Below, piece by piece: positions 1 through 4,468 of a DNA stretch of 4,468 nt (within the stretch, counting starts at the first letter, position 1; every line of letters begins with the position of its first letter). The translations under genes and the position numbers were made by a program. This stretch comes from a virus (Duplodnaviria; Heunggongvirae; Uroviricota; Caudoviricetes), in the IMG/VR virus record IMGVR_UViG_2711768074_000001; one strand, written 5' to 3'. The notes beneath the pieces were generated by a model, which searched no databases, was not told where the DNA came from, and was given only the letters and a program-made list of their open reading frames with translations.

Positions 1-1
1 C

Positions 2-115
2 GGCGTGTTTCCCAACCAGGACGGCACGTTTACCGCGATGACGTATACCAGAAGCAAAACGTTTAAAACCGAAAATGGTGCCCGTCGCTGGCTGGAAAGA
101 AACTCAGGTGAGTGA
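2..115 (+). CDS. 3' end of an upstream gene (5'-partial, start lies left of the window); hypothetical protein ending ...VFPNQDGTFTAMTYTRSKTFKTENGARRWLERNSGE
   Basis: Frame open from the window edge to TGA at 113-115 with protein-like composition. The other two + frames stop at 39-41 and 64-66. The next ORF starts 1 bp downstream with its SD inside this 3' end, a typical operon arrangement. Confidence 0.4.
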   Translation, partial: GVFPNQDGTFTAMTYTRSKTFKTENGARRWLERNSGE

Positions 116-116
116 T

Positions 117-245
117 ATGGATTTCGACACAATCATGGAAAAGGCTTACGAAGAATACTTCGAAGGCCTTGCCGAAGGCGAAGAAGCTCTCAGCTTCAGT
201 GAGTTTAAACAGGCGCTTTCCAGCTCGGCAAAATCTAACGGCTGA
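117..245 (+). CDS. Small, highly acidic hypothetical protein (42 aa; MDFDTIMEKAYEEYFEGLAEGEEALSFSEFKQALSSSAKSNG)
   Basis: ATG at 117 preceded by SD AGGTGA (106-111) with a 5-nt spacer; stop TGA at 243-245. 10 acidic against 3 basic residues; enterobacterial-looking codon usage. Below the length cutoff of the supplied ORF track. An alternative in-frame ATG at 75 lacks an SD. Confidence 0.5.
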   Translation: MDFDTIMEKAYEEYFEGLAEGEEALSFSEFKQALSSSAKSNG

Positions 246-274: not shown

Positions 275-493
275 ATGCAGAAACGAGAACCCGTCATCAT
301 CTCGCCAGACTATACCGATGATGAACTTTATGAGTGGATGCGCCAGAAAATTAATGCAGCGCAGGATCTGAAATGGGCCAATGAAGCCAGGGCTAAGCAG
401 GCTGAAAATCTGTCCGCTCTGGAGCAGGATATCACCAGGCTGGAAAAAGCAGCGGCATTAAGCATTGCCAGAATGATTACATACCCGCGTTAA
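275..493 (+). CDS. Hypothetical small phage protein (72 aa) with a predicted helical/coiled-coil C-terminal half
   Basis: ATG at 275 with SD GAGGA (264-268) and a 6-nt spacer; tandem stops TAA-TAG at 491-496. Protein-like composition (DYTDDELYEWMRQKINAAQDLKWANEARAKQAENLSALEQDITRLEKAA). Function not recognised. Confidence 0.7.
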   Translation: MQKREPVIISPDYTDDELYEWMRQKINAAQDLKWANEARAKQAENLSALEQDITRLEKAAALSIARMITYPR

Positions 494-808: not shown

Positions 809-984
809 CGCTGCAACGCCCTCTGTTATCAATTTTCTGGTGACGTTTGGCGGTATCAGTTTTACTCCGTGACTGCTCTGCCGCCGTTTTTAAAGTGAAT
901 TTTGTGATGCGGTGAATGCGGCTGAGCGCACGCGGAACAGTTAAAACCAAAAACAGTGTTATGGGTGGATTCTCTGTATCCGGC

Positions 985-1060: not shown

Positions 1061-1249
1061 ATGGAAACGTTATTACCAAACGTTAATACGTCTGAAGGTT
1101 GTTTTGAAATTGGTGTCACTATCAGTAACCCTGTATTTACTGAAGATGCCATTAACAAGAGAAAACACGAACGGGAGCTATTAAATAAAATATGCATTCT
1201 TTCAATGCTGGCCCGTTTACGTCCGATACAAAAAGGATGCTGGCAATGA
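1061..1249 (+). CDS. Hypothetical small protein (62 aa), translationally coupled to the downstream gene
   Basis: ATG at 1061 with SD TGAGGA (1048-1053) and a 7-nt spacer; the stop TGA (1247-1249) overlaps the next ATG (1246-1248) as ATGA. The track's longer version (956-1249) starts at a GTG with no SD and would run through the GTTAAC repeat block, so I prefer 1061. Confidence 0.5.
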   Translation: METLLPNVNTSEGCFEIGVTISNPVFTEDAINKRKHERELLNKICILSMLARLRPIQKGCWQ

Positions 1250-1437
1250 ATACAGCATTTGCACTTGTTCTGACAGTTTTTCTTGTTTCCGGAGAGCCAG
1301 TTGATATTGCAGTCAGTGTTCACAGGACAATGCAGGAGTGTGTGACTGCAGCAACCGAACAGAAAATTCCCGGTAACTGTTACCCGGTCGATAAAGTTAT
1401 TCACCAGGATAATAACGAAATCCCGGCAGGTCTTTAA
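1246..1437 (+). CDS. Small protein with N-terminal hydrophobic (signal-peptide/TM-like) segment; in the position occupied by racC immediately upstream of recE in Rac-type prophages (positional inference only)
   Basis: ATG at 1246 with SD AAAGGA (1231-1236) and ATGA coupling to the upstream ORF; stop TAA at 1435-1437. The N-terminus MNTAFALVLTVFLVSGEPVDIAVS is hydrophobic. Other in-frame starts at 1192 and 1237 are possible (1192 gives the 81-aa track ORF). Confidence 0.6.
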   Translation: MNTAFALVLTVFLVSGEPVDIAVSVHRTMQECVTAATEQKIPGNCYPVDKVIHQDNNEIPAGL

Positions 1438-1529: not shown

Positions 1530-4001
1530 ATGAGTAAAGTCTTTATTTGCGCTGCTATTCCTGATGAACAGGCCATAAAAGAAGATAGCGCTGTTGCGGT
1601 GGCCACTGCCATTGAAGCTGGTGATGAGCGTCGCGCACGCGCAAAATTTCATTGGCAATTTCTGGAGCAATTCCCTGCAGCTCAGGACTGCGCTTATAAA
1701 TTTATTGTCTGTGAGGATAAACCCGGCATACCCCGCCCTGCCCTCGATTCCTGGGATGCTGAATATATGCAGGAAAACCGCTGGGATGAGGAGTCTGCTT
1801 CCTTTGTCCCGGTTGAGACTGAATCCGATCCGATGAACGTCACTTTTGACAAGCTGGCCCCTGAAGTACAGAACGCTGTCATGGTTAAGTTCGACACATG
1901 TGAAAACATCACCGTTGATATGGTTATTAGCGCACAGGAATTGTTGCAGGAAGACATGGCAACATTCGACGGACATATCGTTGAAGCGTTGATGAAAATG
2001 CCAGAAGTTAACGCCATGTATCCGGAGCTTAAGCTGCATGCCATCGGGTGGGTTAAGCATAAATGTAAGCCTGGTGCCAAATGGCCCGAAATTCAGGCAG
2101 AGATGCGCATCTGGAAAAAACGTCGCGAAGGTGAACGCAAGGAAACCGGAAAATACACGTCTGTTGTTGATCTCGCCCGCGCCAGAGTCAATCAACAGCA
2201 CACTGAAAATTCAACAGGAAAAATCAGCCTGGTCATTGCTGCCATTCATCGCGAATACAAGCAGACATGGAAAACACTGGATGACGAACTGGCCTACGCT
2301 CTCTGGCCTGGTGATGTGGATGCCGGAAACATTGACGGCAGCATCCATCGCTGGGCAAAAAATGAAGTTATCGACAACGACCGCGAAGACTGGAAGCGTA
2401 TCTCGACATCAATGCGCAAACAGCCTGATGCCCTTCGCTACGACCGCCAGACTATTTTTGGCCTTGTCCGTGAACGTCCGATCGACATTCACAAAGATCC
2501 CGTAGCACTGAACAAATATATCTGCGAATACCTGACGACAAAGGGCGTGTTTGAGAATGAAGAAACAGACCTGGGCACTGTTGATGTTCTCCAGTCATCA
2601 GAAACACAAACTGATGCAGTGGAAACTGAGGTATCTGATATCCCAAAAAATGAAACCGCGCCGGAAGCTGAACCATCTGTAGAGCGTGAGGGGCCGTTCT
2701 ACTTCCTCTTCACCGACAAGGATGGCGAAAAATACGGTCGCGCAAACAAACTTTCTGGTCTGGATAAGGCGCTGTCTGCTGGGGCTACTGAAATCACGAA
2801 AGAAGAATATTTCGCCCGCAAAAACGGTACATACTCAGGTTCACAACAAAATACTGGTGCATCTGACACGACCGCACAACCAGGGCCGGTAAAAGTTACC
2901 GCTGACGAAGTAAACAAAATTATGCAGGCAGCCAATATCAGCCAGCCTGACGCCGATAAGTTACTTGCTGTATCGCGTGGTGAATTTGTTGAGGGGATTA
3001 GCGCCCCTAATGATCCGAAATGGGTCAAGGGGATCCAGACTCGCGATTCTGTGAACCAGAACCAGCATGAATCGGAACGGAACTACCAAAAAGCGGAACA
3101 AAACAGCCCAAATGCGTTACAAAACGAGCCAGAAACGAAACAACCTGAACCAGTAGTGCAACAGGAACCGGAAAAGATCTGCACCGCCTGCGGTCAGAGC
3201 GGTGGCGGCAACTGCCCTGATTGTGGTGCGGTGATGGGTGACGCAACATACCAGGAAATATTCGATGGAGAGAATCAGCCTGAAGTTCAGGAAAATGATC
3301 CGGAGGAAATGGAAGGCACTGCGCATCAGCACAAGGAGAACACTGGCGGCAATCAGCATCATGCCAGCGATAGTGAAACTGGCGAGGCGTCAGATCCCTT
3401 AATTAAGGCGAACGGTCATCATAATCTCACATCCACCAGCAGAGCGGGGATTCATCTGATGATCGACCTTGAAACCATGGGAAAAAATCCCGATGCCCCG
3501 ATTATCTCAATAGGTGCAATATTTTTCGATCCGCAAACCGGAGATATGGGACCGGAATTTAGTAAGACTATCGATCTGGAAACTGCTGGCGGAGTCATTG
3601 ATCGGGACACCATTAAATGGTGGCTTAAACAATCACGCGAAGCGCAATCTGCCATTATGGCCGATGAAATCCCGTTAGATGATGCACTGTTACAATTGCG
3701 GGAATTTATCGACGAAAACTCCGGTGAATTTTTTGTTCATGTCTGGGGAAATGGAGCCAACTTCGACAACACGATTTTGCGCCGTTCATACGAACGGCAG
3801 GGGATCCCCTGCCCGTGGCGTTACTACAACGATCGCGATGTACGCACAATCGTTGAGCTGGGGAAAGCCATAGACTTCGATGCCAGAACGGCTATTCCAT
3901 TCGAAGGTGAGCGCCATAATGCACTTGATGACGCCCGTTACCAGGCAAAATACGTTTCAGCTATCTGGCAAAAACTGATCCCGAGTCAGGCTGATTTTTA
4001 A
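1530..4001 (+). CDS. Large prophage exonuclease (823 aa): long N-terminal region of unknown function, Q/E-rich linkers, Cys4 zinc-ribbon-like motif, and C-terminal DEDDh (DnaQ-like) 3'-5' exonuclease domain; possibly of the family annotated as exodeoxyribonuclease VIII (RecE)-like in enterobacterial prophages
   Basis: Single 2.47 kb ORF with SD TGAGG (1516-1520) 9 nt before ATG 1530. The C-terminal ~180 aa carry the three DEDDh motifs in canonical order: D646-x-E648 (MIDLETMG), D746 (GNGANFD), H796-x4-D801 (HNALDDARY). CxxC-x7-CxxC at residues 551-565. The central stretch ADKLLAVSRGEFVEGISAPNDPKWVKGIQTRD resembles what I recall of the non-catalytic part of Rac RecE (unverified). All antisense and alternative-frame ORFs inside it are treated as spurious. 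Confidence 0.9.
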   Translation: MSKVFICAAIPDEQAIKEDSAVAVATAIEAGDERRARAKFHWQFLEQFPAAQDCAYKFIVCEDKPGIPRPALDSWDAEYMQENRWDEESASFVPVETESDPMNVTFDKLAPEVQNAVMVKFDTCENITVDMVISAQELLQEDMATFDGHIVEALMKMPEVNAMYPELKLHAIGWVKHKCKPGAKWPEIQAEMRIWKKRREGERKETGKYTSVVDLARARVNQQHTENSTGKISLVIAAIHREYKQTWKTLDDELAYALWPGDVDAGNIDGSIHRWAKNEVIDNDREDWKRISTSMRKQPDALRYDRQTIFGLVRERPIDIHKDPVALNKYICEYLTTKGVFENEETDLGTVDVLQSSETQTDAVETEVSDIPKNETAPEAEPSVEREGPFYFLFTDKDGEKYGRANKLSGLDKALSAGATEITKEEYFARKNGTYSGSQQNTGASDTTAQPGPVKVTADEVNKIMQAANISQPDADKLLAVSRGEFVEGISAPNDPKWVKGIQTRDSVNQNQHESERNYQKAEQNSPNALQNEPETKQPEPVVQQEPEKICTACGQSGGGNCPDCGAVMGDATYQEIFDGENQPEVQENDPEEMEGTAHQHKENTGGNQHHASDSETGEASDPLIKANGHHNLTSTSRAGIHLMIDLETMGKNPDAPIISIGAIFFDPQTGDMGPEFSKTIDLETAGGVIDRDTIKWWLKQSREAQSAIMADEIPLDDALLQLREFIDENSGEFFVHVWGNGANFDNTILRRSYERQGIPCPWRYYNDRDVRTIVELGKAIDFDARTAIPFEGERHNALDDARYQAKYVSAIWQKLIPSQADF
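3447..4001 (+). other. DEDDh 3'-5' exonuclease domain (C-terminal domain of the 823-aa protein)
   Basis: Exo I DLET (codons at 3465-3473), Exo II NGANFD (3750-3767), Exo III HNALDD (3915-3932), spaced as in DnaQ-like exonucleases. Domain boundaries are approximate. Confidence 0.75.
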
Positions 4002-4016
4002 TGTTCAACCCTAATT

Positions 4017-4043
4017 GCCGCTAACCGTATATAGTTAGCGGCG
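4017..4043. repeat. Perfect 9-bp inverted repeat GCCGCTAAC-N9-GTTAGCGGC in the exonuclease/xis-like intergenic region (possible operator or RNA hairpin; not a canonical intrinsic terminator)
   Basis: 4017-4025 is the exact reverse complement of 4035-4043. No U-tract follows (GGTTATGAG), so it is not a typical rho-independent terminator. Confidence 0.5.
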
Positions 4044-4059
4044 GTTATGAGATATAGCT

Positions 4060-4263
4060 ATGAGCAGCTTATTTTTAACCGAAGATGAATTGCTAATATT
4101 AACGGGCTGCAAATATGCAAGCCACCAGCGAAAATGGTTAATGGAAAACGGGCTTCCGTTCTATACCAATCGTAGTGGCAAACCGATTGTCAGCCGGGAG
4201 CTATTTACCTGCAATAAAACTTTACCACCACGCGAGGTAGAGCCGAATTTTGGTGCGATCTGA
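4060..4263 (+). CDS. DUF4224-like small protein (67 aa), excisionase-like by position directly upstream of the integrase
   Basis: N-terminus MSSLFLTEDELLILTG...WLMENGLPF...GKPIVSRELF fits the pattern I recall for DUF4224 proteins found next to prophage integrases. The stop TGA (4261-4263) overlaps the integrase ATG (4263-4265). The SD is weak. Confidence 0.7.
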   Translation: MSSLFLTEDELLILTGCKYASHQRKWLMENGLPFYTNRSGKPIVSRELFTCNKTLPPREVEPNFGAI

Positions 4264-4457
4264 TGGGAAGACGAAGGAAAAATCCTGAACACGAAAAATT
4301 ACCTCCAAATGTATACCCAAATAAATATAGTTATGTATGGAAACCAACATCCAGAGAATCTGTAACACTAACCGCCGGTAATGACTCCAACTTATTGATA
4401 GTGTTTTATGTTCAGATAATGCCCGATGACTTTGTCATGCAGCTCCACCGATTTTGA
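4263..4457 (+). pseudogene. int: Phage tyrosine integrase, N-terminal fragment only; interrupted by IS1 after codon 38 (native part 4263-4376, then 26 IS1-encoded codons to a stop)
   Basis: MGRRRKNPEHEKLPPNVY... resembles the arm-binding N-terminus of lambda-family integrases (lambda Int begins MGRRRSHERRDLPPNLY, from memory). From 4377 the reading frame is inside the IS1 terminal sequence and terminates at TGA 4455-4457, whereas a full integrase is about 350-400 aa. Confidence 0.8.
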
Positions 4458-4468
4458 GAACGACAGCG
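4377..4468 (-). mobile_element. IS1 insertion sequence, terminal 92 bp (IRR end, element in inverted orientation, continues past the window edge)
   Basis: 4377-4468 (GGTAATGACTCCAACTTATTGATAGTGTTTTATGTTCAGATAATGCCCGATGACTTTGTCATGCAGCTCCACCGATTTTGAGAACGACAGCG) is the reverse complement of the IS1 right end as I remember it, including the ~23-bp terminal inverted repeat. Needs BLASTN confirmation. Confidence 0.9.
4392..4468 (-). CDS. insB: IS1 transposase InsB (InsAB'), C-terminal 24 codons (3' end of the gene; 5' part lies beyond the window)
   Basis: Minus-strand translation of 4466..4392 gives ...LSFSKSVELHDKVIGHYLNIKHYQ*, with the stop TAA at 4394-4392, matching the InsB C-terminus inside the IS1 right end. 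Confidence 0.85.
   Translation of the reverse strand, partial: LSFSKSVELHDKVIGHYLNIKHYQ

Follow-up and report, generated by a model that had tools for sequence, protein, structure and literature searches.

The 4,468-nt viral sequence IMGVR_UViG_2711768074_000001, which we call the window, is the whole of contig CYGG01000159.1 (assembly GCA_001284325.1). It belongs to a Qin-type lambdoid prophage, of which it covers the early-left (dicB) operon, and encodes an 823-residue exonuclease in which a RecE-like scaffold carries a DEDDh domain in the nuclease slot, and no annealase gene lies beside it or anywhere else in the window. The explanation that best accounts for this arrangement, and which we think probable, is that the exonuclease acts alone and that annealing and exchange are left to RecBCD and RecA of the host.

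A preliminary description, made from the sequence alone, had proposed that this exonuclease lacks a neighboring RecT, Bet or Erf annealase and abuts the excisionase-integrase (xis-int) module directly, and both statements hold. The exonuclease stop codon ends at position 4001, and after a spacer of 58 nt the next gene begins at 4060 and encodes a DUF4224 protein (PF13986) assigned to PHROG excisionase families. When the six reading frames of the window were searched with Pfam after masking of stop codons, domains of the RecT, Redbeta, Erf, Rad52 and RecA-like kinds were all absent; the sole families detected were DUF1391, DicB, DUF1482, Rv2179c-like, DUF4224 and the end of an IS1 transposase. 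We also used a tblastn panel composed of lambda Bet, Rac RecT, two Erf proteins, HK620 Sak4, a Rad52-like domain, NinB, Gam, lambda Exo and the RecE nuclease. No annealase query matched the window at E < 1, the single row returned being lambda Exo (E = 0.55), and the positive controls gave strong matches in the control loci. The preliminary description had allowed for an annealase encoded elsewhere in the operon or hidden by a frameshift. A frameshifted or short annealase in the window was rejected by the six-frame scan and the tblastn panel, and the remaining open reading frames (ORFs) of the operon encode 42-72 residues and hence are too short for any known annealase.

For the remainder of the prophage we examined close relatives, a 44-kb O157:H16 region surrounding a 98%-identical prophage and the complete phage mEp460_ev081. 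The panel detected no annealase at E < 0.01 in the 44-kb region, in the vB_EcoS-689R5 locus or in the whole 45.9-kb mEp460_ev081 genome. Across the mEp460_ev081 genome the HK620-type single-stranded DNA-binding protein (SSB) had no match and Gam had only a marginal one (E = 0.007 over 37 residues), Abc2 and canonical SSB being outside the panel. Pfam and PADLOC searches of the unannotated early ORFs of this phage found no annealase, and no SSB domain was found in the early ORFs tested; the other early ORFs match DUF1391, YdaT, DUF977, DUF968, Q, a serine recombinase and PD-T7-1. An unannotated 449-residue protein was considered as an annealase and rejected upon finding a full-length PD-T7-1 match (4e-157). 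This PD-T7-1 defence protein is encoded on the opposite strand of the replication region (locus L004, 33825-35171, minus strand).

The order seen in the window is widely shared. Of 5426 complete E. coli genomes, 2770 contain a colinear counterpart to 80% or more of the window, at about 98% identity, and the median number of matching places per genome is 11. Phage mEp460_ev081, which encodes a 93.8% identical protein, has the order dicB-ydfD-exonuclease-xis-int, and the gene is also carried by Tritos (93% identical), HannyBb and PhiR42_1, all deposited as phage genomes. The exonuclease directly adjoins xis-int also in prophages that have other integration modules. Given its presence in 2770 genomes and in complete phages, the exonuclease-xis junction is no accident of one contig. 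The preliminary description had set the junction against the orders of Rac and lambda, which it gave correctly and which are recE-recT-ralR-rcbA-xisR-intR and gam-bet-exo, respectively.

Three parts make up the mosaic exonuclease: a YdfE_N module, a RecE-homologous middle region and a DEDDh C-terminus. A structure predicted from an 11-sequence alignment divides the YdfE_N module into an alpha/beta domain (residues 1-96) and a helical domain (residues 105-205), and places a helical domain (residues 245-340), a small beta-hairpin domain (residues 388-432) and an acidic linker in the middle region. Homologue searches made for a deeper scaffold alignment returned almost solely E. coli sequences of at least 84% identity. 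At the DNA level the gene is nearly identical to Rac recE from about position 2945 to about 3404 (about 90% identity near the end), whereupon the homology stops abruptly at about codon 625. In RecE the homology runs to residue 591, and the breakpoint lies about 27 residues inside the published boundary. Beyond it the C-terminus gave no above-chance match to the RecE nuclease (residues 595-866) or to lambda Exo. The exodeoxyribonuclease VIII equivalog model NF007259 scored 273.9 bits against a cutoff of 1269 and matched only at profile positions 271-603. As the middle region is homologous to RecE, the comparison with Rac is apt. Both genes occupy the early-left slot between a division inhibitor and xis-int, and the homology of residues 262-625 includes a CxxC...CxxC motif (CTAC...CPDC) that may bind metal. 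The Rac protein differs in having a PD-(D/E)XK nuclease in place of the DEDDh domain, PF06630 in place of YdfE_N, and recT downstream. By these comparisons the exonuclease is a true partial homologue of RecE that differs by a swapped C-terminal cassette.

The C-terminal domain matched PF16473 with 224 bits (gathering cutoff 27) across profile positions 2-177 of 177. Its best solved relative is PDB 8KEL (6.5e-6), which is named as T4 DexA (PMC12153337). The five catalytic residues, D646, E648, D746, H796 and D801, were invariant in an alignment with T4 DexA and the exonuclease of mEp460. Membership in this family predicts 3'-5' polarity and a DNA or RNA substrate. The label "exodeoxyribonuclease VIII" carried by several phage records is misleading, indeed wrong, for the 823-residue protein, because the nuclease is predicted to have the opposite polarity and the NF007259 score is far under the cutoff. 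The preliminary description had suggested that an orphan exonuclease would not be a canonical two-component recombinase, and the DEDDh nuclease, together with the lack of a detectable annealase in a related complete phage, supports that suggestion: unlike a SynExo recombinase, the protein has neither a PD-(D/E)XK 5'-3' nuclease nor an adjacent annealase gene.

The K-12 pseudogene ydfE is the 5' remnant of this 823-residue ORF, cut by IS2E, and the window copy is the intact form. Compared with the mEp460_ev081 copy, the ratio of nonsynonymous to synonymous substitution rates (dN/dS) was 0.25 overall and 0.09 in the N-terminal module, values by which the gene as a whole is judged to be under purifying selection. 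The DEDDh segment (window positions 3405-4001) was nearly identical to those of the genes at two other loci, L008 and L019 (dS 0.05), whereas the first 470 codons in the same comparison were saturated with differences or non-homologous (dS >1.5). Such near-identity between genes having unrelated N-termini (dS 0-0.06) indicates recent exchange. Many genome matches stop within about 10 bp after the exonuclease stop codon, and from these sequence comparisons the DEDDh domain and the xis-int module appear to have been exchanged as separate blocks. Our literature searches on Rv2179c in connection with prophages, and on ydfE, found nothing specific.

Loci that carry other versions of the gene put the missing annealase in context. 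RecT follows the RecE-nuclease version in the Rac-type loci examined; both Rac and vB_EcoS-673R7 have recE (866 residues) and then recT. In vB_EcoS-689R5 and in strain ET625 the gene joins a PF06630 N-terminus of RecE type to the middle region and a DEDDh domain, with no annealase. Shigella phage 75/02 Stx has a 682-residue scaffold protein with PF06630, middle region and linker (locus L007, 4068-7877), an example of the nuclease-less "RecE-2" relatives (Zheng et al. 2025, PMC12315714). This protein shares the middle region and linker with the window protein and differs in lacking a nuclease domain and in being followed by a full lambda-type gam-bet-exo set, the Bet of which is 94% identical to lambda Bet. 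The 75/02 Stx record labels the Bet homologue as RecT.

Stand-alone versions of the nuclease are also found. The original phage mEp460 has a 190-residue DEDDh exonuclease in its early-left operon (locus L005, 2222-6567), together with DUF2303, a YfbR-like deoxynucleotidase, DUF551 and Ead/Ea22 proteins, and no recognised annealase was found nearby. P22-like phages encode a stand-alone DEDDh homologue between erf-ssb and abc2, the order being erf-ssb-exonuclease-abc2 in Salmonella phage NM-3 (locus L011, 2772-4852); in E. coli phage CurroJimenez_Bas106 (locus L010, 2379-4919) an additional endonuclease gene separates ssb from the exonuclease. These DnaQ-like exonucleases have 54-56% identity to the C-terminal domain of the window protein and likewise belong to early-left operons, but are separate proteins of about 180 residues flanked by erf, ssb and abc2, so that an annealase and an anti-RecBCD function are at hand there. 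Given the position of the P22-like homologue between erf-ssb and abc2, the missing annealase cannot be ascribed to the nuclease family as such.

Chi sites suggest a dependence on the host recombination pathway. The window contains two against 0.15 expected, a number reached by none of 200 shuffles, and mEp460_ev081 contains nine, seven of them on one strand, against 1.74 expected (none of 100 shuffles reached nine). A survey of 325 lambdoid phages by Zheng, Casjens, Davidson, Amundsen and Smith (Genome Res 2025, PMC12315714) argued that those poor in recombinases and rich in Chi use host RecBCD. Their class B, with Tritos as prototype, has a nuclease, no annealase, SSB or anti-RecBCD protein and 7-21 top-strand Chi sites (PMC12315714, Table 1). 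This nuclease-only, Chi-rich class was thus already published, and the absence of an annealase in the window is a correct but ordinary finding. The window matches the class in its gene, 93% identical to that of Tritos, in the failure to find an annealase or Gam, and in Chi enrichment (in mEp460_ev081 and in the window); it differs in that its prophage copy is defective and its int is interrupted by IS1. Given that no annealase or Gam was found and that the genome is Chi-rich, the Tritos/mEp460_ev081 lineage most likely relies on RecBCD and RecA of its host.

The arrangement we propose is as follows. The C-terminal slot of a single scaffold gene accepts alternative cassettes, and in the Qin/Tritos lineage of E. 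coli the DEDDh cassette sits in place of the PD-(D/E)XK 5'-3' nuclease of RecE, in a gene that runs straight into xis-int. RecBCD and RecA of the host would most likely carry out strand annealing and exchange, and the phage protein would be a stand-alone 3'-5' DNA exonuclease that possibly trims 3' tails for RecBCD loading.

Several points weigh against this proposal. We know of no established positive role for a 3'-5' exonuclease in phage recombination. The polarity and substrate of the enzyme are predicted from family membership. The prophage was read across the window, which is the entire contig, and in mEp460_ev081 a 339-residue protein of the replication region and a 125-residue ORF had no family match. 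E. coli strains usually contain several lambdoid prophages (the median of 11 matching places reflects this), and hence an annealase could be supplied in trans. Finally, Zheng et al. noted that nucleases of the DnaQ type usually inhibit homologous recombination and called one- or two-gene Rec modules "somewhat suspect" (PMC12315714).

Of the other explanations, the one that survives best is that the protein is an exclusion or defence enzyme that degrades the hydroxymethylcytosine-containing DNA of incoming T-even phages, as does EcD ("HREX"). The domain is of the same DEDDh family as T4 DexA (PDB 8KEL), matching it and the other Rv2179c-type proteins, EcD included, over the full length of the domain and at the five catalytic residues. 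Plasmid-borne EcD is reported to digest T4 DNA and to protect E. coli (PMC12153337), and the dicB operon already has host-directed genes. However, DexA residues W152 and D169, reported to recognise 5-hydroxymethylcytosine (PMC12153337), are not conserved: the aligned residues in the window protein are Tyr and Ala, the placement being approximate at 27% identity. D90, which forms the tetramer in DexA and is lost in EcD (Ala), is kept as Asp in the window protein and its partner S87 is Pro, in the same approximate alignment. Moreover, EcD stands alone as another protein, the sequence of which begins MIDTET, whereas the nuclease of the window is fused to a 625-residue RecE-type scaffold. The gene lies downstream of dicA (annotated as the dicB regulator) in an early-left operon and by analogy with lambdoid phages is probably silent in the lysogen. 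A known defence system was rejected, as the PADLOC match was only to generic DEDDh (1e-5). We consider a defence role unlikely.

A second possibility is that the exonuclease works with an annealase provided in trans. The partner could be a Rac-type RecT or a lambda-type Bet from another resident prophage, or else a phage protein that went unrecognised. The many related prophage segments per genome (the median of 11 places given above), the scaffold held in common with RecE and the P22-like homologue lying between erf-ssb and abc2 are all compatible with such an arrangement. Against it, the phages mEp460_ev081, Tritos, HannyBb and PhiR42_1 carry the gene, and mEp460_ev081, the one examined in full, gave no annealase. 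Partner specificity is known for RecE-RecT and Exo-Bet and involves the nuclease domain, and that nuclease domain is absent from the window protein. Supply in trans therefore seems improbable, and more so than a defence role.

The third alternative concerns the scaffold, and bears on what else this scaffold can carry. Residues 1-640 were searched against 1.84 billion representative proteins and matched 242 clusters, and domains were mapped by local BLAST and phmmer on the 50 clusters of at least 450 residues. The most frequent C-terminus (17 of the 50 clusters) was a shared tail with no Pfam family match, which we call Rad52-like. Eleven clusters had a RecE/DUF3799-type nuclease, seven had a DEDDh domain, one was fused to RecT and in 14 no C-terminal domain was detected. 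The DEDDh, RecE-type nuclease and Rad52-like C-termini all occurred behind N-termini of the YdfE_N type as well as behind those of the RecE_N type. In the RecT fusion, the 703-residue protein P0201, the N-terminus is 100% identical to residues 1-277 of K-12 RecE and is joined, with a linker, directly and in frame to RecT (PF03837, 1.2e-42), with no nuclease domain.

The tail has the fold of Rad52 by modeling. One stand-alone homologue exceeded the PF04098 threshold and five others matched the same region below threshold; some sources call these stand-alone homologues Rad52/22-family or RAD52-like annealing proteins. The AlphaFold2 model of the tail had a mean predicted local distance difference test score (pLDDT) of 86.9, and upon Foldseek search of the PDB the top 27 matches were all RAD52 (E 2e-6, probability 1.0). 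A profile search of the tail against PDB sequences missed Rad52, which only the fold search found. The shared tail is thus modeled as a Rad52-fold annealase domain. In a Yersinia enterocolitica prophage (locus L014, 5682-7467) the order is repressor, small ORFs, scaffold-Rad52 gene, Sipho_Gp157, DUF4224 xis and int. Gp07 of Pectobacterium phage ZF40 (locus L013, 4468-6633) is likewise encoded downstream of a repressor gene and small ORFs, and the genes after it are Sipho_Gp157, small ORFs and int. Both genes lie in a slot equivalent to the early-left slot, between repressor and integrase. The Rad52-tailed proteins are annotated as "exonuclease" or "hypothetical". ZF40 is listed as a phage having no strand-annealing protein (Zheng et al. 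2025, PMC12315714), and scaffold-Rad52 fusions such as ZF40 gp07 seem to have been overlooked as annealases.

Given relatives in which the same scaffold is fused to a Rad52-fold annealase, the N-terminal scaffold of the window protein might itself anneal or bind single-stranded DNA, which would make the protein a single-chain, two-function recombinase. The structure predicted from the 11-sequence alignment showed no annealase hidden in the scaffold, a negative of moderate strength, and we regard this explanation as very improbable. The weakest explanation, former presence of an annealase followed by loss through deletion, insertion sequence (IS) activity or frameshift, fits the damaged state of the prophage (IS1 cuts the integrase at 4377) and the frequent IS hits in related copies, but is already contradicted by the occurrence of the same junction in complete phages and across 2770 complete E. 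coli genomes, by the lack of an annealase remnant in any frame and by a spacer of just 58 nt, and hence merits scarcely any credence. The gene-order comparison gave no indication of decay, and the annealase looks neither lost nor hidden.

The features of the window are collected in the table. The gene order ydfA-ydfB-ydfC-dicF-dicB-ydfD-ydfE matches that of a Qin-type dicB operon by Pfam, Rfam and colinearity with K-12 Qin. The integrase gene is interrupted after codon 38 by IS1, and the prophage cannot excise with its own integrase; the contig stops at 4468 because the IS1 repeat broke the assembly. The spacer between the exonuclease and xis contains a hairpin that is not followed by a T run and hence does not resemble the usual intrinsic terminator; it is a candidate RNA-processing or regulatory site for xis-int expression. 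A promoter and terminator scan gave nothing above chance. The first Chi site lies close to the end of the RecE homology, and Chi-stimulated exchange may have helped to make the mosaic junction.

Table. Coordinates of genes, domains and motifs in the 4,468-nt window
Feature	Positions	Strand	Evidence and remarks
ydfA, 3' part (DUF1391)	1..115	+	PF07151 9.4e-19; gene call; contig begins inside ydfA
ydfB	117..245	+	Gene call; named ydfB in colinear genomes
ydfC	275..493	+	phrog_1744 7e-39; named ydfC in colinear genomes
DicF small RNA	835..886	+	Rfam RF00039, full-length, 72.5 bits (gathering score 48)
dicB, cell-division inhibitor	1061..1249	+	PF05358 6e-37; gene call
ydfD (DUF1482)	1246..1437	+	PF07358 7.8e-25
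Mosaic exonuclease gene, 823 residues	1530..4001	+	TAA stop at 3999-4001; phrog_2082 end to end
YdfE_N N-terminal module, residues 1-260	1530..2309	+	Precomputed PF27430
RecE-homologous middle region, residues 262-625	2313..3404	+	BLASTP to RecE 278-591, E 2e-59
Putative zinc ribbon CTAC...CPDC, residues 551-565	3180..3224	+	CxxC motifs, conserved in RecE alignment
Chi site GCTGGTGG	3433..3440	-	About 30 bp beyond the RecE-homology breakpoint; kept in mEp460_ev081
Predicted DEDDh 3'-5' exonuclease domain (DexA/Rv2179c family), residues 642-813	3453..3968	+	PF16473 1.4e-66
Hairpin, perfect 14-bp stem	4012..4047	+	Inside the 58-nt spacer; minimum free energy -21 kcal/mol, z -3.56, equalled by none of 200 shuffles
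DUF4224 excisionase-like gene	4060..4263	+	PF13986 1.7e-15; phrog_1266 excisionase 4e-21
Second Chi site GCTGGTGG	4122..4129	-	Motif count
Tyrosine integrase, first 38 codons	4263..4376	+	Tyrosine recombinase annotated from the 4263 start in colinear genomes; E. coli prophage match stops at 4376
IS1 end	4377..4468	-	PF03400, IS1 transposase C-terminus; contig end

A broader view, which we offer tentatively and consider doubtful, is that enterobacterial temperate phages use the scaffold as a general platform for bringing exchangeable DNA-end enzymes to a single target, which might be a protein of the host or a DNA end. The enzymes exchanged would be a Rad52-fold annealase and nucleases of 5'-3' and of 3'-5' polarity, and the DEDDh version would be a functional single-gene recombination module that prepares phage DNA ends for the RecBCD-Chi-RecA pathway of the host. 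Irrespective of that view, this prophage gene is very common in E. coli and its lack of an annealase partner is an established trait, not a lesion or a gap in annotation, and a scaffold in common with RecE has been combined with no fewer than three kinds of DNA-processing domain. To our knowledge no function is known for the N-terminal two thirds of RecE, and an understanding of the scaffold could explain the difference between full-length RecE and its nuclease domain in recombineering.

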